Shown: in pieces, positions 5,729-27,800 of the stretch
Layout of the letters: every line of letters starts with the position of its first letter
Position numbering within the stretch: the stretch's first letter is position 1
Assembly: GCF_000025925.1 (NCBI RefSeq)
Contig: NC_014033.1
Location: 2,160,001 to 2,192,000, forward strand
Direction: 5' to 3'
Length of the DNA: 32,000 bases
Origin: Xylanibacter ruminicola 23
GTDB taxonomy: Bacteria > Bacteroidota > Bacteroidia > Bacteroidales > Bacteroidaceae
Position numbers and translations under genes: made by a program
The notes under the pieces: model-generated
Databases searched by the model: none
The model's input: the letters and a program-made list of their open reading frames with translations, nothing else
Told to the model about the DNA's origin: nothing

Positions 5729-5750
5729 TTTTTATTATTGGTTGTAATAT

Positions 5751-5789
5751 AATGTTTAATCTTTAATGTTTAATCTTTAATGTTTAATC
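5751..5789. repeat. Tandem heptamer array (AATGTTT AATCTTT) x2.8 between the sensor gene and GH31
   Basis: Read directly: AATGTTTAATCTTTAATGTTTAATCTTTAATGTTTAATC. The last unit supplies the TAA stop (5784-5786) and the final Asp codon of the sensor gene. Confidence 0.9.
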
Positions 5790-8882: not shown

Positions 8883-8904
8883 ATATATACTATCAAAAGG
8901 ATTT

Positions 8905-9924: not shown

Positions 9925-9950
9925 TTCTACATTCGTATCATGTGACGTTG

Positions 9951-9958
9951 CAAAGGTA
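9951..9958 (-). promoter_or_regulatory. -7 promoter box (TACCTTTG) for the LacI gene, and probably for the downstream sensor and GH31 genes
   Basis: The reverse complement of caaaggta matches TAnnTTTG, 26 nt upstream of the LacI ATG. A minus-strand TTTG at 9978-9981 lies 19 nt further upstream, consistent with a -33 element. Confidence 0.65.
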
Positions 9959-9975
9959 CACATTTTTTTGAAAAT

Positions 9976-9989
9976 CGCAAACGTTTACG
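9976..9989. promoter_or_regulatory. Candidate LacI-family operator (imperfect palindrome CGCAAACGTTTACG with central CG)
   Basis: Six of seven half-site positions are symmetric around a central CG, as in LacI/GalR/CcpA-type operators. It overlaps the putative -33 TTTG of the LacI promoter. Confidence 0.45.
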
Positions 9990-10034
9990 TGTGATTTTTT
10001 GCGTTAATGTATTGATTTCGAGTATTTTTCTTCG

Positions 10035-10042
10035 TACCTTTG
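10035..10042 (+). promoter_or_regulatory. Orphan -7 promoter box (TACCTTTG, extended TACCTTTGCAC) with no CDS downstream
   Basis: It has the same extended sequence as the boxes at 18373 and 24800. It points into a 120-nt non-coding gap. Confidence 0.55.
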
Positions 10043-10049
10043 CACCAGC

Positions 10050-10142
10050 AAAATCAGAAATGAGTAATGAATAGTTGATAATAAGTTAGTTAGAAAATGG
10101 AAAAGCAAGACTGTCGGGATGACACTCTTGCTTTTTATTTTT
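10050..10142 (+). ncRNA. Candidate small non-coding RNA of about 90 nt (ends approximate)
   Basis: It is bracketed by the consensus -7 box at 10035-10042 and a strong intrinsic terminator at 10103-10142. The only ORFs are a 4-codon MSNE peptide and a 46-codon frame that reads through the terminator. Confidence 0.4.
10103..10142 (+). terminator. Intrinsic terminator (13-bp stem with one C-C mismatch, GGGAT loop, TTTTTATTTTT tail)
   Basis: AAGCAAGACTGTC (10103-10115) pairs with GACACTCTTGCTT (10121-10133), followed by a T-rich tail. The reverse orientation has only a weak T-run (TTCCATTTTC), so it may also serve the convergent DUF5686-like gene less efficiently. Confidence 0.7.
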
Positions 10143-10162
10143 ATACGTGTTTTAAACCGTTT

Positions 10163-12811: not shown

Positions 12812-13502
12812 TATTTTCTAAAATCTGTGTTAAGTCTGTTATTACTTTCCCGGCGGGGGACTCATCAACGGGATCGTTAGTCCAACCTTCGCCTTTGAAC
12901 CATACAGTGTGACATCCCGCCTTACCGGCTGGGATGATGTCTTTATCCATACTATCGCCAACTACCACCACTTCATCAGGCTGCATGCCCAGGGCCTCAA
13001 CGCCCAAAGTAAAAATCTGTGGGTCGGGCTTGCGAACGCCTACCACGGCGCTCTCGATGATGGTATCGAAAATGCCATCCAACTTAAACTCCTTGAGCAC
13101 GGTGGCGATGTTACCATAGAAATTGCTGACCAGCACCATGGGGTACTGCTGTTTGAGTTGCAGCAACACCTCGCGACTTTTGGCAGTCTCTTTCACAGTT
13201 GCCTCGTACAAGCTGTCTGTGAGAGGTTTTAGATAAGAAGAGACAGAAGAAACATAGTTCTGTTCCTTTAAGAACTCCAGCTGGATGCGGATTTTGGTTT
13301 CTATCGTTTTGTAGAACGTAAAATCGGGCTGGATGATAGGATTCTTACCCAATGTGCGCTCGGCATGCACATAGGCATCGCGAAAAGCCTCCTCGCTCAC
13401 AGGCATCTGCTGGCGCTCGTAAGCATGCCAAATTACCTTTCCCCAGTGCTGTCCACCGGTATCCAAGGTCCCACCGTAATCAAATATATAACCCTTGAGC
13501 AT
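12795..13502 (-). CDS. HAD superfamily hydrolase, subfamily IA
   Basis: Motif I FDYGGTLDT (nucleophile Asp present, Asp+2 replaced by Gly). Motif II VLVSNF. Motif III Lys in GVRKPDPQIF. Motif IV VVVGDSMDKDI. Confidence 0.85.
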   Translation of the reverse strand: MLKGYIFDYGGTLDTGGQHWGKVIWHAYERQQMPVSEEAFRDAYVHAERTLGKNPIIQPDFTFYKTIETKIRIQLEFLKEQNYVSSVSSYLKPLTDSLYEATVKETAKSREVLLQLKQQYPMVLVSNFYGNIATVLKEFKLDGIFDTIIESAVVGVRKPDPQIFTLGVEALGMQPDEVVVVGDSMDKDIIPAGKAGCHTVWFKGEGWTNDPVDESPAGKVITDLTQILENNEEKY

Positions 13503-13508
13503 TTAAAA

Positions 13509-13548
13509 ATGTAAAAAATATAAAATGTAAAAATGTAAAAATTATAAT
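13509..13548. repeat. Five tandem octamers (ATGTAAAA AATATAAA ATGTAAAA ATGTAAAA ATTATAAT) in the spacer between the phosphotransferase and HAD genes
   Basis: Read directly. The last unit contains the TAA stop (13542-13544) of the CDP-alcohol phosphotransferase gene. Confidence 0.85.
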
Positions 13549-14441
13549 TTAGCACAGAGGGCCTCGTGCTTGTGGTGCATGTACATATACATGGCCTGGA
13601 AGACGGTAATCTCTACCAGGGGATATACCCAAGGGCAATTGAGCAGACAGGTGACATAGATGGTGATGGCACGTGCATTGAACGTGAGCAGGTTGGTGTA
13701 CTTCATCAAAGGACGACTACCTGCTAACAGGCGCTCACGAATAGCCTCAGAAGGCTGCTGCTTCCAAGCGGCAAAGAACTTCTGGAAGTTAGGTGTGCGC
13801 TGCTCCTGACTCTTACAGTAGTTGGCATAATTATAAAAGAACACGCGCGAGAGCACATCGCTCTTAGGCAACGACTCGTAGTGCGCACGCTGCTGCTTAT
13901 AGTTATCCAACTCGCTACCATCCTTACCCAACAGGAAGAAGAGGTGGATCTGACGGTAGTAGTCGGCCAGAGAGCTCTGCTTGGCATGCAGACCGATACC
14001 AGCAGCGGCACACAGCAGGAAGCCCCAGAAGCGCCACTCGATATCGGTGCCAGGAATGGTCTGATACCACAAGCGGGCCACAATACCCAAATAGATAGAG
14101 GTGAACCACAAATCGCCCGAGAAACCATCGAGCATACGACCAATCAGGGTTTTCTTACCAGTGATACGTGCCATCTGACCGTCGGTAGAGTCGCAGAAGT
14201 TAGCGAACATCAGCAACAGTACACCATAGATGTTATGCAGCAGGTCGGTGTAATGAAACATCCAACCAGCGCCCACGCCTAAGAATATCGATACAATGGT
14301 AATGACATTGGGGTGGATATCCAGTTTGTTCCACAACAATGCAAATACCAGTCCTATAGGACGTGTGAAATGCACGTCCAACCACTCTTCAGTATCCTCC
14401 GATTTAAATGATAATTTCAGTAATTCCTTAAATGTTGCCAT
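13542..14441 (-). CDS. CDP-alcohol phosphatidyltransferase family membrane protein
   Basis: Signature CDSTDGQMAR-ITGKKTLI-G-RML-D (D-x2-D-G-x2-A-R-x8-G-x3-D). The final Asp comes after 4 rather than 3 residues (DGFSGD). Multiple TM segments. Confidence 0.88.
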   Translation of the reverse strand: MATFKELLKLSFKSEDTEEWLDVHFTRPIGLVFALLWNKLDIHPNVITIVSIFLGVGAGWMFHYTDLLHNIYGVLLLMFANFCDSTDGQMARITGKKTLIGRMLDGFSGDLWFTSIYLGIVARLWYQTIPGTDIEWRFWGFLLCAAAGIGLHAKQSSLADYYRQIHLFFLLGKDGSELDNYKQQRAHYESLPKSDVLSRVFFYNYANYCKSQEQRTPNFQKFFAAWKQQPSEAIRERLLAGSRPLMKYTNLLTFNARAITIYVTCLLNCPWVYPLVEITVFQAMYMYMHHKHEALCAKL

Positions 14442-14446
14442 TATAT

Positions 14447-14478
14447 TATTTGACTATTTTACTATTATACTATTTTAC
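14447..14478. repeat. Four tandem octamers TATTnnAC (TATTTGAC TATTTTAC TATTATAC TATTTTAC), followed by AATTGTCAATTA
   Basis: Read directly. It spans the spacer and the last codons plus stop of the ATP-grasp gene (IDNCKIV*). Confidence 0.85.
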
Positions 14479-15250
14479 AATTGTCAATTAGTGCGGCAAT
14501 CGCACTTGCCGCATCTTGTCGGCAGCGCGAAAAGCTGGGCCAGTCGTTGAAATCAATGACACAGTAGCTGCCATCCTCGCGGATGATGCAGTCGCCACCA
14601 TATACGCTGATGCCTACAGCCTGTGCCAGCTTCTCGGCATCGGCCTGCAGCGCCTCTACCACAAAGGGATAATGACGGGCGGTACCATTACGCAGTTCGT
14701 CGTTGAACTTGGTGTCGCCATCATCTGTGGGATAGTAATAGCGGAAGAAGCCCGTACCAGCCACACCATAGAACTTAACCAGATCGCCAGGCACGTGGGC
14801 ACTGACGGTATAGGCCGTGATGCCACGCTGCTGGAAGGCAGCTATCTTCTCGTTCAGCTCGGTCTGATTAGCCGCAAACTGCACATCGCTCTTATCCTGT
14901 GCAGCCGCATCGCCACGCTTCAGCCAGTAGCCATGAGCCCCCTGGCGTGGTGGCATAGGCGTGCCAATCTGTTGCATGAGCGCCTCTAACTGGCAGCGCG
15001 CGCAGTTTGCAATGCCTGTAGAGGAATTGATGGCAGGGAAATCGCGCAGTTTGTCGAGTGTCAGTGGCAGGCGTCCCATCGTAAAAATACGGTGGTAACC
15101 GGCAGGATTAAACGGCTGCTCCTCGCTCACCATCTCTACCTCGTAACCAGCCGCACAAAGCTTAGCGCCTACTGCCTCGAGTATCGCCTTGTCTTTCTCA
15201 ACCGAATTAGGTGAGAACACCTCCGCCTGCTGTACCAATAGTATCTTCAA
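14465..15250 (-). CDS. ATP-grasp fold protein (ITPK/RimK-like), substrate unknown; apparent TTG start
   Basis: N-terminal KILLV strand typical of a pre-ATP-grasp domain. C-terminal metal-binding-like motif GGDCIIREDGSYCVIDFNDWPSF (D-x-N), which resembles the IDxNxFPG motif of inositol-trisphosphate 5/6-kinase-type ATP-grasp enzymes. There is no ATG between the upstream stop and residue 40, and the ORF track start is TTG at 15248-15250. Confidence 0.6.
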   Translation of the reverse strand: MKILLVQQAEVFSPNSVEKDKAILEAVGAKLCAAGYEVEMVSEEQPFNPAGYHRIFTMGRLPLTLDKLRDFPAINSSTGIANCARCQLEALMQQIGTPMPPRQGAHGYWLKRGDAAAQDKSDVQFAANQTELNEKIAAFQQRGITAYTVSAHVPGDLVKFYGVAGTGFFRYYYPTDDGDTKFNDELRNGTARHYPFVVEALQADAEKLAQAVGISVYGGDCIIREDGSYCVIDFNDWPSFSRCRQDAASAIAALIDNCKIV

Positions 15251-15255
15251 TTCTA

Positions 15256-15288
15256 AATGTTTAATCTTTAATGTTTAATGTTTAATGT
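15256..15288. repeat. Tandem heptamers AATGTTT AATCTTT AATGTTT AATGTTT AATGTCC between the nucleotidyltransferase and ATP-grasp genes
   Basis: Read directly. It provides the last three codons (IKH) and the TAA stop of the nucleotidyltransferase gene. Confidence 0.9.
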
Positions 15289-15991
15289 CCAAAAAGGTTT
15301 CTGCCTTTTCGATGTCGCTCGCATGGTCGATATCCAGCACCTTTGAGAAGGGGTAAGCCTTGAGCAGCAAGCCATCGGCCACCAGGGCACGCTGGAAGTT
15401 GCGCATACGACTCTCGCCACGCTCGATACAACGCTGCAATACAGGGATGGCCTTAGGTGTTAAGCCATAGATGCCACCACTGATATACTTAGGCAGCTCA
15501 CAGGTATCGAAGAAGCCTGTTATCTGCAGGGCATCGTTGGTACCCACATACAGAGGTTTCTCGTCGTCGATATAATCGGTAACGCCCATCAAGCCATCCA
15601 CCTCGCCTGTCTGTGCCAGCAACTCAAAAGTCTTGGCATAGGTAGCAAACTCTTTTTCACGGAAGATGGTATCTACGGTGGTGAGCACAAAGGGCTCGTC
15701 GGTGAGCCACTGACTCAGTTCCCAGGCACTGTGCATAGAGCTGGGGGTACTCTTCACGATAAACTTCAGGGGCACTTGCTTTGCCTCTGCTATCTCCTTC
15801 AGATGCGCAGCCACAGCCGTCATCTGTTCATTACAAATCACACATATTTCGCTGGCGCCATTGGCCATAAACACACGTATCAAACGGTCGATCAGATGTT
15901 CGCCACCCACTTCTACCAGGGGCTTTGGCGCCTGTACGCCTTCTTGTGCCAATCGCGATCCCTCGCCAGCAGCTATAATTGCATATTTCAT
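15275..15991 (-). CDS. Sugar/alcohol-phosphate nucleotidyltransferase (NTP_transferase fold; LicC/IPCT-like cytidylyltransferase candidate)
   Basis: N-terminal signature MKYAIIAAGEGSRLAQEGVQAPKPLVEVGG (G-x-G-x-R ... K-P-L). Its 238-aa length is typical of single-domain cytidylyl/uridylyltransferases. Confidence 0.85.
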   Translation of the reverse strand: MKYAIIAAGEGSRLAQEGVQAPKPLVEVGGEHLIDRLIRVFMANGASEICVICNEQMTAVAAHLKEIAEAKQVPLKFIVKSTPSSMHSAWELSQWLTDEPFVLTTVDTIFREKEFATYAKTFELLAQTGEVDGLMGVTDYIDDEKPLYVGTNDALQITGFFDTCELPKYISGGIYGLTPKAIPVLQRCIERGESRMRNFQRALVADGLLLKAYPFSKVLDIDHASDIEKAETFLDIKH

Positions 15992-16024
15992 CCTGAATCG
16001 TCAAAAATTACTAGTTTTCGGCGG

Positions 16025-16032
16025 CAAAGGTA
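16025..16032 (-). promoter_or_regulatory. -7 promoter box (TACCTTTG) for the nucleotidyltransferase-led operon
   Basis: The reverse complement of caaaggta lies 33 nt upstream of the ATG at 15991. The upstream gene ends with its own terminator at 16097-16125. Confidence 0.65.
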
Positions 16033-16096
16033 CGCATTTTTACCGAATTACGAAAACTTTGGCTATATATTTAGGTTTTATTTACTATAAAACCAT

Positions 16097-16125
16097 AAAA
16101 AAAGGTGGGGTTTTAACGCCCCACC
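16097..16125 (-). terminator. Intrinsic terminator of the DUF2807-like gene
   Basis: On the minus strand, GGTGGGG (rc of 16119-16125) pairs with CCCCACC (rc of 16104-16110) and is followed by T7 (A-run 16097-16103 on the plus strand). The hairpin includes the stop codon. Confidence 0.8.
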
Positions 16126-16889
16126 TTGAGATTATCGGTATCGATGTCGCCTGAGCCACTTTTATGTTTGTTCATGGATTGAACAGTGCCTCGGAGGTCG
16201 ATATCACCCGAGCCCATGAGCTGGGCATCGACTGAGCCACAGCCTTTTGCAAACTCTACATTCACATCACCAGAGCCACGCAGGGTGATACGGGTAGAGG
16301 CGGCATTCTGCTGGCGCAGGTTGATATCACCCGAGCCAATCAATGTCACATCAGTCTCGCGGGTATCGAGGTTGCGGATAGAGGCATCGCCTGAGCCTAC
16401 TACCTCGAGATTGCAGCGATCGCACAGCAAAGACGAGAACTGGATGTCGCCAGAGCCCTTTAAGTTGATGGTGATATTATCGGTATCCACGGTTCTCTCG
16501 CTGATAAAATCACCTGAGCCAGCCAAGGAAACAGATACGAGATCGGGTGAAGTAACGTACACAGCCAGCGTGTAATCGCCACCGAAATTGATGTTGAACA
16601 TGCCTATCTTACCACGATTGCGGATGGTGAGTTTGCCATCAGACACTTCAGTGATGATGTTATCAACAATATCCTTAGGACCTTTGACCTTGACCGAGAA
16701 CGAGTCGGCCTGCTGGTAGTAAACAGTGGGTGAGCCATACACCTCGATTCCCTCGAAACCACGTAATGAACGACTCTCGGTAACCTTTGGACCGAAATCA
16801 CCAAACTTAAACGACATATTTTCGCGACTGCAGCTGCAAGAAGTCAGCAGAAACGCAATGAAAACGAAAAATAAATACTTTATTTTCAT
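16113..16889 (-). CDS. Lipoprotein with DUF2807 / head-GIN-like beta-helical repeats
   Basis: Lipobox FLLTSCSC. Seven GSGD-initiated repeats of about 20 aa: GSGDFISE, GSGDIQFS, GSGDASIR, GSGDINLR, GSGDVNVE, GSGDIDLR, GSGDIDTD. Confidence 0.8.
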   Translation of the reverse strand: MKIKYLFFVFIAFLLTSCSCSRENMSFKFGDFGPKVTESRSLRGFEGIEVYGSPTVYYQQADSFSVKVKGPKDIVDNIITEVSDGKLTIRNRGKIGMFNINFGGDYTLAVYVTSPDLVSVSLAGSGDFISERTVDTDNITINLKGSGDIQFSSLLCDRCNLEVVGSGDASIRNLDTRETDVTLIGSGDINLRQQNAASTRITLRGSGDVNVEFAKGCGSVDAQLMGSGDIDLRGTVQSMNKHKSGSGDIDTDNLKVGR

Positions 16890-16890
16890 T

Positions 16891-16926
16891 AAACATTAAA
16901 GATTTAACATGAAACATTAAATTAAC
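16891..16926. repeat. Degenerate AATGTTT-family heptamer array directly upstream of the DUF2807-like start codon
   Basis: The minus strand reads GTTAATTT AATGTTT CATGTTA AATCTTT AATGTTT, then A and ATG. Confidence 0.75.
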
Positions 16927-16986
16927 TTTCTCTGACTGTTAGACGGAGTAAACAGCAGAAAAGTTGCAAGGGGGCGAAACTTTTTT

Positions 16987-18237
16987 TTAGCTTAATGGCA
17001 GCTCGACCCAGAAACGCGAGCCATTATCAAGCACAGAATCGACACCAATGCTACCACCTAAGCTCTCGACATGACTCTTGGCTACCGACAGGCCTAAGCC
17101 AGTGCCAGGCACATACTCATCGACCTTGAAGAAACGTTCGAAGATGCGCTCCTGATGCTCCTCGGCAATACCCTTACCTGTATCGAGCACCCACAGCAGG
17201 AGCTTGTCGCCTTGCTGCAAGTCGAAGCCCAAGGTGATAGAACCCTGTGCGGTGAACTTGACGGCATTCTGCATGAGGTTGTTGACAATCTCCTTGAACT
17301 TGGTGATATCGGTGTTCATCAGAATCTCGGGATAAGGGAACTGGGTGGCCAGAACCACGGTGCTGCCATCTACCATGGTGCGGTAGTAATCGGCAATCTC
17401 CTGCAGCACAGGCACGATATTGGTCTGCGACTTGACCAGACTCTTGGCCTCGGCCTCGACCTTCGACATGCTGACCAGTCCATCGATAATATTAAGCAGC
17501 TTATAGTTATTTTTCTGGATTTCGGAGATGAGTTGGTTACGATCCTCCTCGCTCTCAACTACCGGCAGCAAGTCGGCAAAACCTACAATGGCATTGAGCG
17601 GCGTACGGATTTCGTGACCCATGTTTGCCAGGAAAGCGGTCTTCAAGCGGTCGCTCTCCTCGGCCTTGTTACGGGCAGCAATCAGGTCGGCCTCCATCTG
17701 CTTCTGCGCATCGATACGCATAGAGGTTCCTACGATACGGGTAGGATTGCCATCCACATCGCGGGCAGCAATGGTACCATAACTCTCCTCCCAATAGTAC
17801 AGGGCACCCTTACCCAGTTTTACACGATACACCTCGTGATAAGAAGGCGAGGCACCGGTACAGATTTTATCGATGGCCATCCACACACGCTGGGCATCGG
17901 CCCTATCGATGACATTGGTGAGATCTTCGATAGGGAATTCGGGCGGACCCACCAAGCCACCTTTGTTATCACGGAAATCGGCATCTACATAAAGCATCTT
18001 GGTAGGCACATCGATATGCCACGTACTGAGCTTCATGGCCTTGAGCACAAACTCGGACTCGACATTGTTCTGGCGCACCTTTTCGAGCTCGACCAACTCG
18101 GTCTGGAGCTTACGACCAGCGCGACGCTGAACAAAAATCATGATGAACAGCCACAAGAACAACAACGCACCGCCCAACCAAAGGGCCGGAACGAGGTACG
18201 GACTTTCCGATTGCGTGTATAGTAGCAAATTATACAT
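16987..18237 (-). CDS. Membrane-anchored PAS-domain sensor histidine kinase
   Basis: N-terminal TM ALWLGGALLFLWLFIMIFV, then a PAS-like segment. H-box FLANMGHEIRTPLNAIVGF, N-box LMQNAVKFT, G1 DTGKGI, G2 GTGLGLSV. Confidence 0.9.
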   Translation of the reverse strand: MYNLLLYTQSESPYLVPALWLGGALLFLWLFIMIFVQRRAGRKLQTELVELEKVRQNNVESEFVLKAMKLSTWHIDVPTKMLYVDADFRDNKGGLVGPPEFPIEDLTNVIDRADAQRVWMAIDKICTGASPSYHEVYRVKLGKGALYYWEESYGTIAARDVDGNPTRIVGTSMRIDAQKQMEADLIAARNKAEESDRLKTAFLANMGHEIRTPLNAIVGFADLLPVVESEEDRNQLISEIQKNNYKLLNIIDGLVSMSKVEAEAKSLVKSQTNIVPVLQEIADYYRTMVDGSTVVLATQFPYPEILMNTDITKFKEIVNNLMQNAVKFTAQGSITLGFDLQQGDKLLLWVLDTGKGIAEEHQERIFERFFKVDEYVPGTGLGLSVAKSHVESLGGSIGVDSVLDNGSRFWVELPLS

Positions 18238-18259
18238 CTTGGGTTTTGAATTAATGTGG

Positions 18260-18267
18260 CAAAAGTA
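18260..18267 (-). promoter_or_regulatory. -7 promoter box (TACTTTTG) for the PAS histidine kinase
   Basis: The reverse complement of caaaagta lies 22 nt upstream of the ATG at 18237. Confidence 0.6.
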
Positions 18268-18372
18268 AGGAAATTATTTGGAAAACGAGCATTTTTTGGC
18301 CGTTTTTTATAAAAAACGAAGATTTTTTGTTAGATTAACAGTAAAAAAGCGCATTTTTGGGCGAACTTTCAT

Positions 18373-18380
18373 TACCTTTG
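18373..18380 (+). promoter_or_regulatory. -7 promoter box (TACCTTTG) for the THUMP methyltransferase operon
   Basis: TACCTTTGCAC lies 20 nt upstream of the ATG at 18401. Confidence 0.65.
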
Positions 18381-18400
18381 CACGCTGTAAACTATTAGAA

Positions 18401-19900
18401 ATGGAGCAAAAGTTTGAATTGATCGCCAAAACGTTTATGGGACTGGAACCTGTACTGGCGAAAGAGCTGACCCAAATGGGGGCTAACGATGTTGAAATCG
18501 GTAGACGAATGGTTTCGTTTACGGGTGATAAGGAAATGATGTATCGTGCCAACTTTCAGTTGCACACGGCTATCAGAATTCTGAAGCCAATACGCCATTT
18601 TAGAGCTAAGAGCGCAGACGATGTGTACGAAGAGATCAAGAAGATTGACTGGACTGAATATCTGGGTACCGACAAGACCTTTACGGTTGACTCGGTAGTC
18701 TTCTCTGAAGAATTCCGTCACTCAAAGTTTGTTTCGTATAAAGTAAAGGATGCGATTGTTGACCAATTCCGCGAGAAGACGGGCAAGCGCCCCAATATAT
18801 CGGTGGCCAACCCTGACATCCGACTGAACATGCACATTGCTGAAGACAAATGTACGCTGAGTCTCGACTCGAGCGGTGAGAGTCTGCATCGTCGTGGCTA
18901 CCGCCAGGAGAGTGTAGAGGCACCACTGAACGAGGTGCTGGCAGCTGGTATGATTCTGCTGAGCGGATGGCAGGCCGATACTGATTTTATCGACCCCATG
19001 TGTGGTAGCGGTACCCTGCTGATTGAGGCTGCCCTGATAGCCAAGAACATGGCACCAGGATTGTTCCGCAAGGAGTTTGCCTTTGAGAAGTGGCCTGACT
19101 TTGATGCCGACCTGTTTGATGAGATTTACAACGACGAGAGTCAGGAGCGTGAGTTTAACCACAAGATTTACGGCTACGACATCGACATGAAGGCTGTGAA
19201 CACCGCCCGCATGAATGTGAAGGCAGCCGGACTGAGCGATATCATCACCGTAGAGCAGCAGGACTTCAAGAACTTTACACAACCTGCCAACAAGAGCATC
19301 ATGATATCGAACCCACCTTATGGTGAGCGTATCTCGACGCCCGACCTGTTGGGTACCTACAAGATGATTGGTGAGCGACTGAAGCACCAGTTCAAGGGCA
19401 ACGACGCCTGGATACTGAGCTACCGCGAGGAGTGCTTCGACCAGATTGGTTTGAAGCCCAGCATCAAGATTCCCCTTTACAACGGCAGTCTGGAGTGCGA
19501 GTTCCGTAAGTACCAGATGTTTGACGGTAAGCTGAAGGACTTCCGCTCGGAAGGTGGCGTGGTGAAGACCGAAGAGGAGAAGCGCCAGATGGCCGAGAAG
19601 CACCGCTTTAAGAAGGAGCGCGAGTTTAAGAAGCGCCTGGAAGAGAAAGAGGAGAACGAGGAGGCCGATATTCTGAACTTTACTTTCCACAAGCACGATC
19701 TGGGTAGAAACCGCGGCGGACATGAGAGCTTTGACCGCAGTGGTAAGGACCGCAAAGAGCGTAAGGAGTTTAGCAAAGGCGACCGCAAGGAGTTTGGTAA
19801 GGGCAAGGACCATAAGGACTTTAAGCGTGGCGGCAAGCGCGACTTTAGCAAAGGCAAGGACTTTGGAAAGAAGAGGAGATTTGACGATGATGAAGATTAA
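18401..19900 (+). CDS. THUMP-domain class I SAM-dependent RNA methyltransferase (RlmL N-half/YpsC-like) with a Lys/Arg/Asp-rich C-terminal tail of about 120 aa
   Basis: ORF 18278..19900 trimmed to the ATG at 18401 (MEQKFELIAKTFMGLEPVLAKEL), downstream of the promoter box. SAM motif DPMCGSGTLLIEAA and catalytic NPPYGER. The tail contains degenerate repeats DRKEFSKG / DRKEFGKGKD / HKDFKRGGK / RDFSKGKDFGKK. Confidence 0.88.
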   Translation: MEQKFELIAKTFMGLEPVLAKELTQMGANDVEIGRRMVSFTGDKEMMYRANFQLHTAIRILKPIRHFRAKSADDVYEEIKKIDWTEYLGTDKTFTVDSVVFSEEFRHSKFVSYKVKDAIVDQFREKTGKRPNISVANPDIRLNMHIAEDKCTLSLDSSGESLHRRGYRQESVEAPLNEVLAAGMILLSGWQADTDFIDPMCGSGTLLIEAALIAKNMAPGLFRKEFAFEKWPDFDADLFDEIYNDESQEREFNHKIYGYDIDMKAVNTARMNVKAAGLSDIITVEQQDFKNFTQPANKSIMISNPPYGERISTPDLLGTYKMIGERLKHQFKGNDAWILSYREECFDQIGLKPSIKIPLYNGSLECEFRKYQMFDGKLKDFRSEGGVVKTEEEKRQMAEKHRFKKEREFKKRLEEKEENEEADILNFTFHKHDLGRNRGGHESFDRSGKDRKERKEFSKGDRKEFGKGKDHKDFKRGGKRDFSKGKDFGKKRRFDDDED

Positions 19901-22043
19901 ACTGATGGTGGCCGCACTGGCCATGATGATGACTGCCACAACCATGAGCGCTCAGGATAAGAAACTGTTTACACTCGAAGACCTGAACTTCGGCGGTAAC
20001 AACTATGCCAACCTGCGTCCACAGAACATGTGGCTGACATGGTGGGGCGAGCAGCTGATACAGCAGGATGTAGAGGCCTGCTACACCATCAACACCAAGA
20101 CAGGTAAGAAAACCCTGCTGTTTACACTCGACGACATCAACAAGTGGGCAGGCAGTGATGATACCAAGTACGTGCGCCACCTGATGAACGCCACATTCCC
20201 CTACCCCAACAAACCTATCGTGAAGTTGGGTAACAGGAAGGCGGTGATACTGCTCGACTTCAAGGCCAAGCAGATTATCTGGCAGGACAGCATAGCCGGA
20301 CAGCAGGCCTACGACTGGAACGCCACCTCGCGTGCCACAGCCTATGTGGAGAACCACCAGCTGTATGTGGTGGATGGTGCCGGTAAGAAGCACCAGCTGA
20401 GCACAGACGGCAGCCGAGAGATTGTGTACGGTCAGAGTGTGCATCGTAATGAATTCGGTATCGACAAGGGTACCTTCTGGAGCCCTGATGGTAGCAAGCT
20501 GGCTTTCTATCGCATGGACCAGAGCATGGTAACCGACTACCCACAGGTAGATATCTTCCCACGTAACGCCAGTTACGAGCCCGACAAGTACCCCATGGCT
20601 GGTATGACCAGTCATAAGGTGACCGTGGGTGTGTTTGACGTGAAGAGTGGTAAGACCGTATATCTGCAGGCTGGTGACCCAACCGACCGTTATTTCACCA
20701 ACATCAGTTGGGCTCCCGATGCCCAAACGGTGTATATGCTGGAGCTGAACCGCAAGCAGAACGACTGCCGATTGGTATCGTACGATGCCAACACAGGCGC
20801 CAAGATAGCCGAGTTGTATCGTGAGACATCGGAGAAATATGTGGAGCCACAGCACCCCATCGAGTTCCTGCCTTGGGATGCCAGCAAATTCGTGATGCAG
20901 AGTCAGAAGGATGGCTACAACCACCTGTACCTGATGGATAAGAGCGGTAAGCAGCTGAAGCAGATTACCAGTGGCAAATGGGTAGTGATGGAGGTGTTAG
21001 GCTTTAACCTGAAGGACAAAGCAGTGATTATCGCCTCGAACGAGTTGAGCCCCCTGCAGCGTAACCTCTGGGCTGTAAACATCAGCACTGGCAAGCGCAC
21101 CCTGCTGGATAACGGTAAGGGCGTGCATCGTGGTGAGCTGTCGGCAACAGGTGCCCTGTTGTTCAACAAATATCAGGAACCCACCGTTCCTAATAATATT
21201 GAAGTAACCAGCACCCACCACCCATCACCCATCACCTTATTGAAAGCCGCTGACCCCTGGGCAGCCTTCGAGCAGCCCATCTATGAGAACGGTAGCATCA
21301 AGGCCGCTGATGGCACTACCGATTTATATTATAGAATGGTGAAGCCACACGACTTTGACCCCAATAAGAAATACCCCACTGTGGTGTATGTGTATGGCGG
21401 ACCTCACGCCCACAACGTAGACGCCTCGTGGCACTGGGCCAGCAGATCGTGGGAGACCTACATGGCACAGAAGGGCTACATCTGCTTTATTATCGACAAC
21501 CGTGGCTCGGAGAATCGCGGACGTGACTTTGAGCAGGCTACCTGGCATCAGTTAGGACAGGTAGAGATGCAGGACCAGATGAAGGGTGTGGAGTTTCTGA
21601 AGCAGCAGTCATACGTGGATACAAACCGACTGGGTGTACACGGCTGGAGCTTTGGTGGATTCATGACCATCAGTCTGATGACCAACTACCCCGACGTGTT
21701 TAAGGTAGGTGTAGCAGGCGGTCCGGTGATTGACTGGAAATGGTATGAGGTGATGTATGGCGAGCGCTATATGGGTACCCCACAGGATAACCCCGAGGGT
21801 TATGCCAAGAGCAGTCTGATCAGCAAGGCCAAGAACCTGAAGGGCAAACTGCAGATTATCACGGGTTATAACGATAACACCGTGGTGCCACAGCACTGCC
21901 TGAGTTTCCTGGATGCCTGCATCAAGGCCGGCACACAGCCCGACTTCTTTGCCTACCCAGGCGAGGAGCATAACATGCGTGGTCATGCCTCAGTGCACCT
22001 GCACGAGCGCATCACCCAATATTTTGAGGATTACTTGAAATAA
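19887..22043 (+). CDS. S9B family serine peptidase (dipeptidyl-peptidase IV / prolyl tripeptidyl peptidase-like)
   Basis: ORF 19722..22043 trimmed to the ATG at 19887 (signal peptide MMKIKLMVAALAMMMTATTMSA). Beta-propeller N-domain and catalytic Ser motif HGWSFGGF, with Asp/His regions ITGYNDNTV and EEHNM. The start overlaps the methyltransferase 3' end by 14 nt. Confidence 0.88.
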   Translation: MMKIKLMVAALAMMMTATTMSAQDKKLFTLEDLNFGGNNYANLRPQNMWLTWWGEQLIQQDVEACYTINTKTGKKTLLFTLDDINKWAGSDDTKYVRHLMNATFPYPNKPIVKLGNRKAVILLDFKAKQIIWQDSIAGQQAYDWNATSRATAYVENHQLYVVDGAGKKHQLSTDGSREIVYGQSVHRNEFGIDKGTFWSPDGSKLAFYRMDQSMVTDYPQVDIFPRNASYEPDKYPMAGMTSHKVTVGVFDVKSGKTVYLQAGDPTDRYFTNISWAPDAQTVYMLELNRKQNDCRLVSYDANTGAKIAELYRETSEKYVEPQHPIEFLPWDASKFVMQSQKDGYNHLYLMDKSGKQLKQITSGKWVVMEVLGFNLKDKAVIIASNELSPLQRNLWAVNISTGKRTLLDNGKGVHRGELSATGALLFNKYQEPTVPNNIEVTSTHHPSPITLLKAADPWAAFEQPIYENGSIKAADGTTDLYYRMVKPHDFDPNKKYPTVVYVYGGPHAHNVDASWHWASRSWETYMAQKGYICFIIDNRGSENRGRDFEQATWHQLGQVEMQDQMKGVEFLKQQSYVDTNRLGVHGWSFGGFMTISLMTNYPDVFKVGVAGGPVIDWKWYEVMYGERYMGTPQDNPEGYAKSSLISKAKNLKGKLQIITGYNDNTVVPQHCLSFLDACIKAGTQPDFFAYPGEEHNMRGHASVHLHERITQYFEDYLK

Positions 22044-22044
22044 C

Positions 22045-22079
22045 AAATTGTCAAATCGTAAATAGTCAAATCGTCAAAT
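22045..22079. repeat. AAAT-anchored 7-8 bp tandem array (AAATTGTC AAATCGT AAATAGTC AAATCGTC AAAT) filling the spacer between the peptidase gene and purD
   Basis: Read directly. It runs from just after the peptidase stop up to the purD ATG at 22080. Confidence 0.85.
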
Positions 22080-23366
22080 ATGAAAATCTTACTGTTAGGA
22101 AGTGGCGGACGTGAGCACGCCTTAGCTTGGAAAATTGCTCAGAGTGATAAATGCGAAAAGCTTTACATTGCCCCAGGTAATGCCGGAACCAGCAACTGCG
22201 GAGAAAACGTAAACATGAAGGCCGACGACTTTGAGGCCATCAAGCAGTTCGTAGTTGAAAAGGGCATTCAGATGGTAGTGGTAGGTCCTGAGGATCCATT
22301 GGTAAAGGGTATCTACGACGACCTGAAGGCTGATGAGCGTACCAAGAACGTACCAGTGATCGGTCCCTCAAAGGCAGGTGCCGTGCTCGAAGGATCGAAG
22401 GATTTTGCCAAGGCCTTTATGGAGCGTCACCACATCCCCACAGCCCGCTATCAGACCTTTGATGGCGAACACCTGGAAGAGGGACTGAAATTCCTGGAGA
22501 CACTCGAAGCCCCCTATGTGCTGAAGGCTGATGGTCTGTGCGCTGGTAAGGGTGTGCTGATTCTGCCTACACTCGACGAGGCTAAGAAAGAGCTGAAGGA
22601 GATGCTGGGCGGTATGTTCGGTAATGCTTCGAGTCGCGTGGTGATCGAGGAGTTCATGAGTGGTATCGAGTGCTCGGTATTCGTGCTGACAGACGGTAAG
22701 AACTACAAAATTCTGCCCGAGGCCAAGGACTACAAGCGTATTGGCGAGCACGATACTGGTTTGAACACCGGTGGTATGGGTAGCGTGAGCCCCGTGCCTT
22801 TTGCCACTAAGGAGTGGATGCAGAAGGTAGAGGATCGCATTATCCGTCCAACCGTAGAGGGTCTGGCAGCTGATGGCATCGACTACAAGGGCTTTATCTT
22901 CTTCGGACTGATTAACCGCACCAACACCCCTAGCAAGGAGGCTGAGCCATACGTGATTGAGTATAACTGCCGTATGGGCGACCCAGAGACTGAGAGCGTG
23001 ATGCTGCGCCTGAAGAGCGACCTGGTTGACCTGTTTGAGGGTGTGGCCGAGGGGAACCTCGACCAGCGTGCCATCGCCTTTGATGAGCGTGCAGCCGTGT
23101 GCGTGATGCTGGTATCGGGTGGTTATCCACAGGAATACAAGAAGGGCTACCCCATCACAGGCATCGAGGATGTGGAGGGCAGCATTGTATTCCACGCTGG
23201 TACAGCCCTGAAGGATGGCGAAGTAGTGACCAATGGCGGACGCGTGATTGCCGTATCATCATATGGTAAGGACAAGGCCGAGGCCCTGCAGAAGTCGTTC
23301 GAGGAGGCACAGAAGATTCAGTTTACTGACAAATATTTCCGTCGTGACATCGGAGCGGACTTGTAG
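22080..23366 (+). CDS. purD: Phosphoribosylamine--glycine ligase
   Basis: Full-length match to the PurD pattern: [18 protein letters not shown], the ATP-grasp core, [17 protein letters not shown]. Confidence 0.95.
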
Positions 23367-23394
23367 TGAATAGTGAAAAGTGAATAGTGAAAAG
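23364..23394. repeat. Tandem heptamers TAGTGAA TAGTGAA AAGTGAA TAGTGAA AAG at the junction of purD and the membrane-protein gene
   Basis: Read directly. The first unit contains the purD TAG stop and the fourth contains the GTG start of the next ORF. Confidence 0.9.
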
Positions 23395-24328
23395 ATTTCA
23401 GAATAAAATAGCTGAGAGCCGTCGCACGTTGCCGATTACCATCCTGTATGGTGTCGGCATCTGGCTTTTGGCGGGGTTGGTACATCAGGGTTGGTGGTTC
23501 CAGTTCCTGTGTTTCTTTGCATCGGTATATGCCATGATTCACCTGAACAACATCAACATGCTGATACGTATCTACAGTCGCTCGGTTTCGGTATTTTATA
23601 TTCTGTTGGCTTGTTCGGCCACCTGGATGTTCGGATCCATCCTAGGTACGGTGCAGGTGCTCAGCATGGTAATAGGCTTGTTGCTGCTGTGCTCGTGCTA
23701 TCAGGACCAGAAAAGCGTGGGACGCACGTTCTACCTATATATGCTCATCAGCATTGTGAGTCTGTTGGAACCGCACTTCCTGTTGTATGTGCCCATCTTC
23801 CTGTTGCTGATGGCCACCACCATCTACTCGTTGAGCTGGCGAACCTTTTTCGCAGCACTCATCGGACTTGTTACACCCTACTGGCTCTATACCGGTTGGC
23901 GACTCTACATCTACAGATACCAGCCTGAGATGGCTTTCGACAATCTGAACCGCTTTACCGAGGTACAGTGGAGCACCGACTATAGCGCTGTAAACACTCA
24001 GCAGTGGGCGTATCTGGCTTTGTTGGTAGTGCTGTTTATCGTGGGTACCATCCACTTCTGGATGAACAGTTACAAGGATAAGATACGTGTGCGCCAGATA
24101 TACAACAGTATGATGATGCTCACCATCTACACCCTGCTACTGATGGCTGTGCAGCCTCAGCAGTACGACACGTTTATTGGTATGCTCACCATCGTGGTGT
24201 CGCCCATCGTGGCCCACTTCTTTACGCTTACCAATAGCCGACTGAGCAACCTGTTCTTTATCGTAACCATGGCCACAATCCTATTCCTAACAGGCATGAA
24301 CCTATGGATTTCATCATCAGCTTTCTAA
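23387..24328 (+). CDS. Polytopic inner-membrane protein of unknown function (about 10-11 TM segments); apparent GTG start
   Basis: The ORF consists almost entirely of hydrophobic helices (e.g. LPITILYGVGIWLLAGLV, VQVLSMVIGLLLLCSCY, WAYLALLVVLFIVGTIHFW). I recognise no catalytic motif. There is no in-frame ATG near the 5' end. Confidence 0.6.
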   Translation: MKRFQNKIAESRRTLPITILYGVGIWLLAGLVHQGWWFQFLCFFASVYAMIHLNNINMLIRIYSRSVSVFYILLACSATWMFGSILGTVQVLSMVIGLLLLCSCYQDQKSVGRTFYLYMLISIVSLLEPHFLLYVPIFLLLMATTIYSLSWRTFFAALIGLVTPYWLYTGWRLYIYRYQPEMAFDNLNRFTEVQWSTDYSAVNTQQWAYLALLVVLFIVGTIHFWMNSYKDKIRVRQIYNSMMMLTIYTLLLMAVQPQQYDTFIGMLTIVVSPIVAHFFTLTNSRLSNLFFIVTMATILFLTGMNLWISSSAF

Positions 24329-24756
24329 CCCAATACGGCTACTGGGGCATGCTGTTGGCTGCCTTCCTGGCTGGCAGTTTCTTTCCATTCTCGAGCGAGG
24401 CTGTGATGGTGGGACTGATGGCCACAGGACTTGACCCATGGAGCCTGATGATATACGGTACCATCGGCAACGTGCTGGGCAGCGTGTTCAACTACGGTGT
24501 GGGACGTATGGGTAAGATAGAATGGATAGAGAAATACCTGCATGTAAAGAAAGAAGACCTTGACAAAGCCCACCGCTTTCTGGCAGGTCATGGTGCATGG
24601 ATGGGGTTCTTTGCCTTTCTGCCTGTGTTAGGCAGTGCCATCACCATCGCTTTGGGACTGATGCGATCGAACGTGGTGATTACGTTCATAGCCATTACCC
24701 TAGGCAAATTATTCCGTTATGTGGTATTAATCTATGGTGCAGGATTGTTTATGTAA
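24304..24756 (+). CDS. YqaA-type small membrane protein (DedA/SNARE-associated superfamily)
   Basis: The 150-aa protein has the motif FLAGSFFPFSSEAVMVGL...GNVLGSVFNYGVGRMG, characteristic of YqaA/COG1238. It overlaps the preceding gene by 25 nt. Confidence 0.75.
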   Translation: MDFIISFLTQYGYWGMLLAAFLAGSFFPFSSEAVMVGLMATGLDPWSLMIYGTIGNVLGSVFNYGVGRMGKIEWIEKYLHVKKEDLDKAHRFLAGHGAWMGFFAFLPVLGSAITIALGLMRSNVVITFIAITLGKLFRYVVLIYGAGLFM

Positions 24757-24764
24757 GTTAATTC

Positions 24765-24799
24765 TCAATTATCAATTGTAAATTATCAATTATATTTAT
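24765..24799. repeat. Tandem heptamers TCAATTA TCAATTG TAAATTA TCAATTA TATTTAT abutting the -7 box of the next promoter
   Basis: Read directly. The array ends one base before TACCTTTG at 24800. Confidence 0.85.
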
Positions 24800-24807
24800 T
24801 ACCTTTG
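24800..24807 (+). promoter_or_regulatory. -7 promoter box (TACCTTTG) for the DUF2723-like gene, and probably the CE4 and GH3 genes
   Basis: TACCTTTGCAC lies 47 nt upstream of the ATG at 24855. Confidence 0.65.
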
Positions 24808-24854: not shown

Positions 24855-27800
24855 ATGAAACAATTTAGATTAGTAGACAACACGTTGGGCTGGCTGACAT
24901 TCCTGATTGCGGCCTTTGTCTATTGTTCTACCATCGAGCCGACAGCCTCGTTCTGGGACTGTCCCGAATTTATTACCACTGGTTATAAACTGGAGATTGG
25001 TCACCCACCTGGGGCACCTTTCTTTATGTTGACAGCAAACCTGTTCTCGCATTTTGCCAGCGATGCCACCCAGGTGGCCCGTATGGTAAATACCATGAGC
25101 GCCCTGCTGTCGGCTACGTGTATCCTGTTCCTGTTCTGGACCATCACACACCTGACACGCCGACTGCTGATTAGCAACTGGAGCGAGCTCAGTATGCCCA
25201 AACTGATTGCCATCGAGGCATCAGGCATGGTAGGTGCCTTGATCTACACCTTCAGCGATACCTTCTGGTTCTCGGCTGTTGAGGGTGAGGTTTATGCCTA
25301 CTCATCGGCCTTTACCGCTGTGGTATTCTGGCTCATACTGAAATGGGAGGATCAGGCCGACGAGCCTCATAGTGATCGCTGGCTGATTCTGATTATGTAT
25401 ATGACAGGTCTCTCGATTGGTGTACACCTGCTGAACCTGCTGTGTGTGCCTGCCATTGTGCTGGTATATTACTACCGTCGTTTCCCCGATGCCAACCTGA
25501 AGGGTTCGCTCATCGCACTGGCAGTATCAGTAGTGATCCTGGCTGCTGTGCTATATGGCGTAGTACCTGGTATCATCACTGTGGGTGGCTGGTTTGAGCT
25601 GTTCTTTGTGAACACCCTGGGCATGCCATTCAATACGGGTGAGATTATCTACCTGATTCTGTTGGTATCGTGCGTCATATGGGCAGTTTACGAGACCCAG
25701 ACACAGAAGCACTCGCTGACTATCCAGAACCTGGCATTCCTGCTGTCGGTAGGTATGTTGGGTATCCCCTTCTACGGTTGGGGCTGGTCGGCCTTCCTGA
25801 TTGGCGTGGTAGTACTGGCAGTACTGTGGTTCCTGTTGAAATACACCCGCGAGAAAGAGTTGCTCATCACAGCCCGCATGAAGAACACCATGCTGCTGTG
25901 TATGCTGATGCTGATGATTGGTTACTCGAGCTACGCGCTGATTGTCATCCGTTCGTCGGCTAACCCACCTATGGACCAGAACTCACCTGAGGACATCTTT
26001 ACGCTGGGTGATTACCTGGGACGTGAGCAGTACGGACAGCGTCCGTTGTTCTACGGACCCGCCTACACCTCACAGGTAGCTCTGGAACAGGACGGCAACT
26101 ACTGCAAGCCTGTGATGAGTAAGGGTAAGCCCGTATATCAGCGTAAGGAAAAGGCTACTGCTGATGAGAAGGACTCGTACTTTGTAGTACGCACCAAGGA
26201 TGAATACAAGTATGCACAGAATATGCTGTTCCCACGTATGTACGATGCCGGTCATGCTGCCGCTTACGAATCGTGGATGGGTGGTGTTGATGGCTCGCAG
26301 GTGCCTTACGACCGCTGTGGCGAACAGATGATGGTGAAGGTGCCCTCACAGTTGGAGAACCTACGTTTCTTCCTGAGCTATCAGTGTAACTTTATGTACT
26401 GGCGCTACTTTATGTGGAACTTTGCCGGACGACAGAATGATATCCAGGGCAACGGTGAGCTGGAGCATGGTAACTGGATTACCGGTTTCTCGTTTATCGA
26501 TGATGCACGCCTGGGCGACCAGAGCATGCTGCCTACAGAGCTGAAGGAGAACAAGGGACATAACGTATTCTACTGCATGCCACTGATACTTGGTTTGCTG
26601 GGCTTGTTCTGGCAGGCTTGGTACACCCGCAAGCGTAAGACCGTGGTGAACGGCGTAGAGAAGACCGTTGAAGAGCCTATCGGCATTCAGCAGTTCTGGG
26701 TGGTATTCTTCCTGTTCTTTATGACAGGACTGGCCATCGTAATCTATCTTAACCAGACACCTATGCAGCCACGTGAGCGCGACTATGCCTACGCTGGTTC
26801 GTTCTATGCCTTTGCCATCTGGTGTGGTATGGGTGTAGCTGCCATCATCGACTGGCTGAACCGCAAGCTGAAGAAGGAGAACCTGGTAGTGGCCGCTGTG
26901 ATTGGCGTTGCTTGTCTGCTGGTGCCCATCCAGATGGCCAGTCAGACTTGGGACGATCACGATCGCTCGGGTCGTTACTGCTGTCGCGACTTCGGTCAGA
27001 ACTACCTCATGACCTTGCAGGAAGAGGGTAACCCCATTATCTTTACCAATGGTGATAACGACACCTTCCCATTGTGGTACAACCAGGATACTGAGGGATT
27101 CCGTACCGACGCACGTGTATGTAACCTGTCGTATCTGCAGACCGACTGGTATATCGACCAGATGCGTCGTCAGGCTTATGACTCACCTTCAGTGCCCATC
27201 ACCTGGAGCCGACTGGAGTACTGTGCCGGTACCAACGAGTACGTGCAGGTTGACCCATCGCTGAAGGCTGAAGTAGAGAAACTGTATCGTGAGAACCCAG
27301 AGGAGGCTAAACAGAACTTTGGTGAGAAGCCATTCGAGCTGAAGAATATCCTGGAACGTTGGGTTCGTTCGAAGAATAAGGATCTGCATGTGATTCCTAC
27401 AGATACCGTATATGTAACCATCGACAAGGAGGCTGTTCGCAAGAGTGGCATGATGATGGCTGCTGATACCATCCCCGATCAGATGGTGATCTCGCTGAAG
27501 GGTAAGAACGCCCTGTACAAGCAGGACCTGATGATGCTGGAGATGATTGCCCAGTGCAACTGGACACGTCCTATCTATGTAGCTACTACCGTAGGTTCGG
27601 AGAACTACATGAACCTGGGCGACAACTTTGTTCAGGAGGGCTTGGCTAACCGTATCACCCCATTCACCACCAACGCCCCTGGTGCCAAGAACTTTGATAC
27701 TGAGAAGACGTATAACAACGTGATGAACAAGTTCAAGTTCGGTGGTGTGGACAAGGCTGGTATCTATCTTGATGAGACTGTGATGCGCATGTGCTATACC

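Follow-up and report, generated by a model that had tools for sequence, protein, structure and literature searches.

Tandem hepta- and octanucleotide arrays at the gene junctions of a rumen Prevotella chromosome and their relatives across the Prevotellaceae

The 32-kb stretch of DNA considered here (hereafter the window) comes from the chromosome of a rumen Prevotella, Xylanibacter ruminicola 23, and about half of its gene junctions are occupied by short tandem arrays of 7- or 8-nt words, which are the subject of this work. Its sequence is that of BPTT01000001.1 of assembly GCA_019973335.1, without differences, and GCA_900108375.1 matches it over the overlapping part; its PurD protein is 93-94% identical to PurD of rumen Prevotella metagenome-assembled genomes, and its GC content is about 51%. 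The gene content is ordinary, with sensor kinases, an RpoD-like sigma factor, a GH31 alpha-xylosidase, a LacI regulator and a DUF5686 protein, and a four-gene operon for a HAD hydrolase, a CDP-alcohol transferase, a 261-aa protein without a known family and a nucleotidyltransferase. Beyond this operon lie the genes for a DUF2807 protein, a THUMP methyltransferase, DPP-IV, PurD, a membrane protein and a VTT/DedA protein, and after the latter those for a TMEM260-like protein, a polysaccharide deacetylase and a GH3 enzyme. The arrays are present unchanged in the assemblies of two isolates at NCBI and in independent metagenome contigs from ENA and Logan, and they are therefore no artefact.

Arrays were detected with Tandem Repeats Finder (TRF) and by direct reading of the window, which agree with each other and place the arrays at essentially the same positions as an initial annotation of this DNA. 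TRF returned arrays of period 7 or 8 with 3.6-5.7 copies, eight of them at junctions and three within genes. At least nine junction arrays had been counted initially; the arrays are real but their number is eight, the supposed separate copy at 14479-14490 being the end of the array that begins at 14447. When junctions are counted as gaps of at least 10 nt (n = 15), 8 of the 15 hold an array, against a mean of 0.08 and a maximum of 1 in 200 dinucleotide-preserving shuffles, and five gaps consist almost entirely of array (38 of 39, 36 of 36, 20 of 20, 18 of 23 and 19 of 24 nt). The words named initially are rare elsewhere, AATGTTT being found 11 times in arrays and not once in the rest of the window. 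That AT-richness does not explain the periodicity, as had been argued, is borne out by the shuffles, which yield practically no arrays.

The junction arrays from 5750 to 23394 were each found both by TRF and by reading. A family A array at 5750-5789 (minus strand; sense GATTAAACATTAAA, with words AATGTTT/AATCTTT and a perfect 14-mer in 2.9 copies) includes the TAA stop codon (5784-5786) of a Reg_prop/Y_Y_Y sensor kinase gene, and its end lies 21 nt upstream of the GH31 ATG (5728). The octamer array at 13504-13548 (minus strand; sense TTTTTACA, 4.9 copies) makes up 38 of the 39 nt between the stop codon of the CDP-alcohol phosphatidyltransferase gene (13542) and the ATG of the HAD hydrolase gene (13502); at the orthologous junction, other species have a 13-nt spacer or unrelated sequence. 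About the last eight residues and the TAA stop codon (14465) of the 261-aa gene are encoded by a family B octamer array at 14447-14490 (minus strand; sense AAAATAGT/ACAATTGT, 4.5 copies), from which it is 5 nt to the next ATG (14441). The 12-mer AAATAGTCAAAT is common to this array and to the octamer array at 22044-22079 (plus strand; CAAATTGT/CAAATCGT, 4.6 copies), and the two are therefore assigned to one family; the latter forms the whole 36-nt gap from the TAA of the DPP-IV gene to the purD ATG. Family A is found again at 15256-15288 (minus strand; sense AAACATT/AAAGATT, 4.7 copies), where it gives the nucleotidyltransferase gene its residues DIKH and its TAA stop codon (15275), a TTG start codon (15250) following 5 nt on, and in the opposite orientation at 16887-16926 (minus strand; sense TTTAATG, 5.0 copies), where the final unit ends with the ATG start codon (16887-16889) of the DUF2807 gene.

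The purD TAG stop codon and the GTG start codon (23387) of the following membrane-protein gene are both included in a family C array at 23364-23394 (plus strand; four copies of TAGTGAA/AAGTGAA, that is, AGTGAAT/AGTGAAA). Farther on, a TCAATTA-type heptamer array (24760-24799, plus strand, 4.9 copies) lies between the VTT/DedA stop codon (24756) and a Bacteroidota -7 box. It was described initially as abutting this box, and indeed TACCTTTG, the -7 promoter box of the TMEM260-like gene (24800-24807, plus strand), begins at 24800, immediately 3' of the array; the box is kept across species. The stop codons reported to be supplied by arrays (5784, 13542, 14465, 15275 and 23364) and the start codon at 23387 all fall within them, as does the ATG at 16887-16889, and arrays in both orientations relative to transcription, another element of that description, are found in the window.

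Three arrays that lie within genes had been overlooked. A family A heptamer array of about five units (3121-3149, minus strand; sense TAATGTT/TCATCTT) in the GH31 alpha-xylosidase gene encodes a surface-loop insertion, PNVSSLMFNVS (residues 860-870), in the C-terminal domain of the enzyme. In a protein alignment of GH31 orthologues, the loop varies in length at this site and some proteins are without the insertion, and in two other species the loop DNA consists of five units of AATTCTC and five of ACCTCTC, versus the five of TAATGTT/TCATCTT in the window. The second, found by TRF, is a family C array (12728-12758, minus strand; sense ACTATTC...) in its only stop-free orientation, and it encodes ILFTMHCSLFT, the hydrophobic core of the DUF5686 signal peptide. 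The third, a GC-richer heptamer array (CCATCAC, 4.1 copies; 21208-21236, plus strand), lies within the DPP-IV gene and encodes TSTHHPSPIT.

The distribution of such arrays in the lineage was obtained from 80 purD loci of other species, with our own calls of open reading frames, for a total of 1.47 Mb run through TRF alongside shuffled controls; arrays with at least three copies were counted. There were 92 arrays of period 7 (66 intergenic, 26 coding), 39 of period 8 (31 intergenic, 8 coding) and 19 of period 9 (9 intergenic, 10 coding), the last being a frame-keeping unit that is relatively commoner in coding sequence, and no more than two arrays at any one period from 2 to 6. The controls gave at most about 0.3 array per period, and practically none of period 7 or 8 versus the 131 observed. 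Intergenic sequence represents 9% of the total, yet it holds 97 of these 131 arrays, an enrichment of about 28-fold. The density of arrays per kb of gap is 1.36 between co-directional genes, 0.76 between convergent genes and 0.39 between divergent genes, and arrays sit close to stop codons (median 6 nt) and to start codons (median 21 nt). More distant relatives with tight or overlapping junctions have no arrays there.

Array density also follows base composition, with 0.09 array per 10 kb in genomes below 45% GC, 0.35 at 45-48% and 1.0-1.5 above 48%, a split that is seen among close relatives as well. In genomes of at least 48% GC, the arrays account for 6.5% of intergenic DNA and are its most AT-rich part, at 32% GC versus 42% for other intergenic DNA and 53.5% for coding sequence. 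Inverted pairs of same-word arrays, 11 in all, were seen after stop codons in other species, Segatella copri among them (sites include L014:11276-11366, L030:11171-11275, L033:11274-11355 and L052:8372-8470). They form AT-rich hairpins whose stems measure 25-35 bp and whose loops span 10-94 nt, the purine-rich arm coming first in eight of nine, and may represent terminators, RNase III targets or stabilisers. The window holds single arrays only, without any inverted pair.

Strains of the same species that are 97-98% identical overall differ at their arrays. Among seven strains with 97-100% identity, the array at 23364 has 4, 3 or 2 units, the shorter forms lacking 7 or 14 nt, which fits the initial suggestion of slippage-prone spacers; a metagenome scan of this purD-downstream junction recovered three further strains. 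At the DPP-IV/purD junction, three alleles occur within the species, made of CAAATCGT octamers, GTGAATA heptamers (strains L082 and L086) and AAAGTTC heptamers (L108 and L109). Strain L082 has family A in place of the 14447 array and family C in place of the 15256 array, and at the 16887 array strains differ by point changes. The swapped patches extend 25-45 nt into the 3' end of the upstream gene, and for the DPP-IV/purD swap the flanking changes are all synonymous and the gene bodies 99-100% identical. A patch of about 70 nt within the TMEM260-like gene (26890-26960), far from any array, is approximately 40% diverged in L082, with flanks that are 99-100% identical, and short-patch recombination from a diverged lineage seems frequent in the species. 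Because the swaps carry diverged flanking codons and a similar patch is found in an array-free gene, they are taken to reflect the exchange of old junction haplotypes by short-patch homologous recombination, and the idea that arrays are rewritten in place between strains was dropped.

Other strain differences and features of the window were recorded in passing. At 28834, where the polysaccharide deacetylase gene ends, strains differ by a 1-nt indel and diverged sequence, and the GH3 gene is called as 802 aa in L082 and L084 versus 782. Just 3' of the minus-strand DUF5686 gene, a hairpin followed by a T-run (10100-10171; aagcaagag...ctcttgctttttta), accompanied by a loose 11-nt repeat, is probably an intrinsic terminator. 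The C-terminal tail of the THUMP methyltransferase (19780-19900) is strongly charged (RGGKRDFSKGKDFGKKRRFDDDED), and its gene overlaps the start of the DPP-IV gene by 14-20 nt.

Among other species, the purD junctions have differing words or no array. Where the HAD-to-nucleotidyltransferase operon is retained beside purD, as it is in a few species, its junctions are overlaps or 4-15-nt spacers, and the arrays of the window are therefore derived insertions, which overwrote former stop codons and added 4-8 residues. To judge by sequence likeness, two of them have possible local seeds: the unit of the 23364 array matches a GTGAARAG start region that is conserved in array-less relatives, and L005 has TTTTTAATGTTATG at the position of the 16887 array. 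The promoter-adjacent array at 24760 behaves otherwise. It shows no variation in any strain compared, and arrays occupy the equivalent position, 4-9 nt upstream of the kept -7 box, in about 12 other species, with words that drift in concert (TCAATTA, TTATCAC, TCTTCAC/TTTTCAC, TTCTCAT, AAAGCTC). That this array has been kept suggests that some arrays are now constrained. At the same VTT/TMEM260 junction, two species (L028 and L051) have tandem units of about 22-24 nt, repeated 6-10 times, where other species have heptamer arrays.

The 92 heptamer arrays represent 51 canonical words, and these words are not distributed at random among genomes. Identical words are shared by 15 of 115 non-adjacent pairs of arrays within a genome (13%) versus 57 of 3701 pairs between genomes (1.5%), and none of 500 label permutations reached the observed within-genome value. 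In 19 kb of the same genome beyond the window, just two more arrays were found, of families A and C. The recurrence of the same words at unlinked loci, noted initially for the window, thus extends to other species and to phage contigs: the AAACATT/AAAGATT mix is found in L012, L024 and L045 and in seven stretches from IMG/VR, in which arrays reach 20 copies. Among these seven, the contig L091, which encodes a tape-measure protein, has heptamer arrays at most of its structural-gene junctions (2867-6248 and 14332-14421), with the words TTCACTG, TTTAATC/TTTAATG (18 and 13 copies) and TCAAAGT, and since this phage-like contig carries arrays, the array-making process acts on phage DNA too. No conserved flanks, target duplication or terminal motif were seen around the arrays when family A flanks were compared in the window. 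About 7 kb to the left of the window (L104:18789-19676) lies the gene of a 295-aa Y1 transposase (PF01797), with a GC-rich motif, ACCTGTCCCCTG(T/G)CA, on both sides and flanking CCTGTCCCCTGTCA repeats; the element looks like an IS200/IS605-type element or one related to the REP-associated tyrosine transposases (RAYT). A link between the arrays and this transposase was rejected, its GC-rich CCTGTCCCCTGTCA flanks being unrelated to the AT-rich arrays.

Several tests addressed whether the arrays carry a signal. Among the 81 arrays that lie between co-directional genes, stop codons in all three frames are present in 36 on the sense strand and in 41 on the antisense strand, and ATG in 19 and 22, respectively; for lack of any such asymmetry, the notions of an all-frame stop barrier and of a start donor were rejected. 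Over the arrays as a whole, there is a weak bias toward A over T on the sense strand (52 versus 34 arrays), which is stronger for arrays that follow a stop codon without a promoter box (23 versus 5) and flips to T-rich upstream of -7 boxes (10 versus 4). The predicted folding energy is 0 in 52 of the 81 arrays and does not differ from that of shuffles of equal composition (p = 0.27); hence selection against structure, beyond AT content, leaves the periodicity unexplained. A search of both strands of the window with Rfam 15 at the gathering threshold gave no match. An effect on the neighboring gene is nevertheless predicted, as initiation regions (-35 to +15) that contain an array have a mean predicted fold of -2.1 kcal/mol, versus -5.8 kcal/mol at tight junctions and -4.8 to -5.5 kcal/mol at other gaps (p from 1e-7 to 2e-4). 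Work in Prevotella bryantii found no effect of Shine-Dalgarno sequences, and there a structure of -5.2 kcal/mol lowered the amount of a reporter protein five-fold (PMC3155529); data from Flavobacterium agree in direction (PMC6847099).

We favor the view that the arrays are hepta- and octanucleotide long simple-sequence repeats (SSRs), a lineage-wide trait of mid-GC Prevotellaceae, that are born by slippage and kept as AT-rich spacers, and we would give it a probability of roughly 0.6. The arrays have the features of long SSRs (units of 5-11 nt), namely tandem copies above chance, a non-coding bias of non-triplet units, and whole-unit changes between strains. Birth by slippage with filtering by reading frame fits the abrupt onset at 7 nt, the polymorphism by whole units and the intergenic confinement of non-triplet units, as well as the strand neutrality of the arrays and their absence from related junctions. 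A stretch of 7-8 nt at a junction, or in the codons of a tolerant loop or end of a protein, would first be duplicated in tandem; slipped-strand mispairing might then enlarge the duplicate to about 4-5 units, and continued slippage would keep the units alike. Turnover is likely to be fast, by gain or loss of whole units and by short-patch recombination between strains. As units of 7 or 8 nt break the frame, selection would leave arrays in gaps, at gene ends and as in-frame loop insertions, a filter for which the evidence is indirect. A retained array would represent a very AT-rich, structure-free spacer between cistrons that formerly abutted or overlapped, and may provide the downstream gene with an unstructured leader suited to Bacteroidota ribosomes, which do not use Shine-Dalgarno sequences; at some sites it would place AT-rich DNA immediately upstream of a -7 promoter box. 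Such reasons for retention are suggested by the extreme AT content of the arrays, their confinement to GC-richer genomes and the lack of structure in the leaders. The stop codons, start codons and C-terminal residues that they donate would be by-products, not a function.

Arrays of this kind were initially taken to match no described class of element, which does not hold, as dispersed heptanucleotide repeats are known from several groups of bacteria. Among the long SSRs of 5-11 nt in prokaryotes, heptanucleotides are the commonest, and polymerase slippage has been proposed as their origin (Mrazek, 2007, as reported in PMC4679880 and PMC4692102). As far as those reports describe them, they resemble the Prevotella arrays in their head-to-tail tandem arrangement, heptamer dominance, patchy phylogeny and proposed slippage, and in the strongly intergenic location of non-triplet units; the Prevotella arrays differ in being very AT-rich, short (4-5 units), of several word families per genome and locally dense, being present in about half of the junctions. 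The short tandemly repeated repetitive (STRR) sequences of Calothrix and Nostoc and the GGGGA(T/C)T repeats of cyanobacteria (PMC4692102) are likewise dispersed intergenic tandem heptamers with genome-specific words and no known function, but they are G/C-richer, often longer and G-quadruplex-capable; the STRR1-3 words CCCCAGT, TTGGTCA and CAACAGT have 2-8 single occurrences in the window and no tandem doublet. The TAACTGA repeats found in marine Beggiatoaceae, in some Cyanobacteria and in five Bacteroidetes (PMC4679880) are also similar: they form heptamer arrays of 2-6 copies a few nt from starts, have a word that includes stop codons, and are in some cases intragenic. That system, however, has one dominant word in a consistent 'forward' orientation to the downstream start, in contrast to the many words and weak orientation bias of Prevotella, and TAACTGA is found once in the window, singly and never in tandem.

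The GGGAATC repeats of Xanthomonas (PMC4692102) are also intergenic heptamers that occupy the same junctions in relatives, vary in length and sequence, and occasionally form inverted pairs; they consist of a single G-rich, quadruplex-forming word, unlike the multiple AT-rich words of Prevotella, and GGGAATC does not occur as a repeat in the window. Repetitive extragenic palindromic sequences and bacterial interspersed mosaic elements (REP/BIME) similarly favor co-directional and convergent gaps, and the inverted array pairs of relatives form hairpins after stop codons as they do. On the other hand, the array word is non-palindromic, no RAYT transposase was found to be linked to the arrays, and those of the window are unstructured direct repeats; as most single arrays fold at 0 and the Y1_Tnp flanks are unrelated, membership in REP/BIME was discarded. 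Archaeal Borg repeats (PMC9879509) are pervasive, recent, fast-evolving and A-enriched, both intergenic and in-frame, with hotspots at conserved positions, as are the arrays described here, but they have varied and longer units, are specific to extrachromosomal elements and are nearly absent from the host, whereas the Prevotella arrays are chromosomal, with occurrences on phage contigs, and have a sharp peak at 7-8 nt. A literature search for a description of such arrays in Prevotella, Prevotellaceae or other Bacteroidales found nothing relevant. The arrays thus join a known, mechanistically unexplained class.

Several observations weigh against birth by slippage and retention as spacers. Independent local slippage does not predict the recurrence of words at unlinked loci or the excess of word sharing within genomes, nor the presence of the same words, the AAACATT/AAAGATT mix included, in species with 75-88% PurD identity and on phage contigs. 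The GH31 loop has about five units of each of three unrelated words in three species, although steps of one unit would break the frame, and copy number peaks at 4-5 units with no simple decay. The invariance of the 24760 array within the species and its similarity in two others point to a constraint beyond 'any AT-rich filler'. Lastly, the benefit of arrays for translation is one predicted from folding energies. Some of these points would be accommodated by a copying mechanism that writes ready-made multi-unit arrays into junctions and loops, by templated insertion, ectopic conversion or an unknown enzyme, the arrays being mobile micro-satellite cassettes shared with phages. This is unlikely, yet it is kept alive as the main rival by the phage-shared word families, the replacement in GH31 of one word by another at a constant five units, and the mode of 4-5 units; the genome specificity of the word families, with no permutation in 500 matching the excess, the recurrence of families A and C in the same genome beyond the window, the AAACATT/AAAGATT mix common to the window, three other loci and seven IMG/VR stretches, L091 with its tape-measure gene included, and the presence of family A at a junction whose relatives show no similar seed all argue in the same direction. 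However, the arrays have no conserved flanks, target duplication or terminal motif, two of them have possible local seeds, no enzyme emerged as a candidate, and the Y1 transposase nearby is flanked by unrelated GC-rich repeats, while the strain swaps with their 25-45 nt of diverged synonymous flanks, like the patch in an array-free gene, fit ordinary short-patch homologous recombination. A self-propagating family, in which a process of templated insertion, either dedicated or hijacked, would copy ready-made multi-unit arrays of genome-specific 7- or 14-nt words into junctions, protein loops and the phages resident in the genome, is decidedly unlikely; if it existed, it would constitute a new kind of mobile micro-repeat that remodels the gene ends and leaders of Prevotellaceae.

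Explanations that attribute a specific function to the arrays are less likely. The arrays might be sites for a protein each subunit of which covers about 7 nt of single-stranded RNA or DNA (a cold-shock or OB-fold protein, S1, or a HutP-like ring), or for a nucleoid protein, and thereby regulate translation, mRNA stability or chromosome structure. The 7-nt period corresponds to the footprint of cold-shock proteins on heptamer repeats (PMC4679880), words are genome-specific, the promoter-adjacent array is conserved, and the sense strand of intercistronic arrays is modestly enriched in A, most clearly after a stop codon without a promoter box. Nevertheless, with at least five unrelated words in one 32-kb window, both orientations, three words at one junction of one species, array-free counterparts of the same junctions in related species and in-frame arrays within enzymes, binding arrays, which the initial annotation had proposed, appear quite improbable, sequence-specific ones included. 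Intercistronic signals for translation or processing had also been envisaged. As RNA signals, the arrays could be terminators, sites of RNase processing, stop barriers in all frames or signals for re-initiation, and the closeness to stop and start codons, the preference for co-directional over convergent and divergent gaps and the 11 hairpin-forming inverted pairs of other species are in keeping with such a role. That closeness is trivial, however, when an array of 30-40 nt fills a short gap, and the window has single arrays only; in the whole set, most co-directional arrays have no predicted structure and stop codons and ATGs show no strand bias, and the window has no Rfam match, which makes this reading very improbable. 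It is very unlikely, finally, that the arrays are contingency loci whose changes in copy number switch or tune the adjacent genes by phase variation: strains do differ by whole units, and one array includes the start codon of the downstream gene, but the neighbors are housekeeping or metabolic genes (purD, DPP-IV, HAD, nucleotidyltransferase) rather than surface-variation genes; a change of unit switches no frame, as the arrays fall outside reading frames; and the units of known phase-variable repeats are 1-5 nt long (PMC4692102).

Prevotellaceae dominate the rumen and many human gut communities. If some 11% of their co-directional junctions, and about half of those in the window, consist of fast-changing repeats, then gene ends, starts and C-terminal tails are far less stable than the genes themselves, which affects annotation and strain typing; conversely, the arrays represent natural, highly polymorphic strain markers. 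By prediction, the arrays give the least structured initiation regions, in organisms whose ribosomes disregard Shine-Dalgarno sequences, and they are confined to the GC-richer genomes, in which such regions are hardest to obtain. The arrays also offer a tractable case in which to ask why heptanucleotides dominate the long SSRs of bacteria, and what role, if any, they have.

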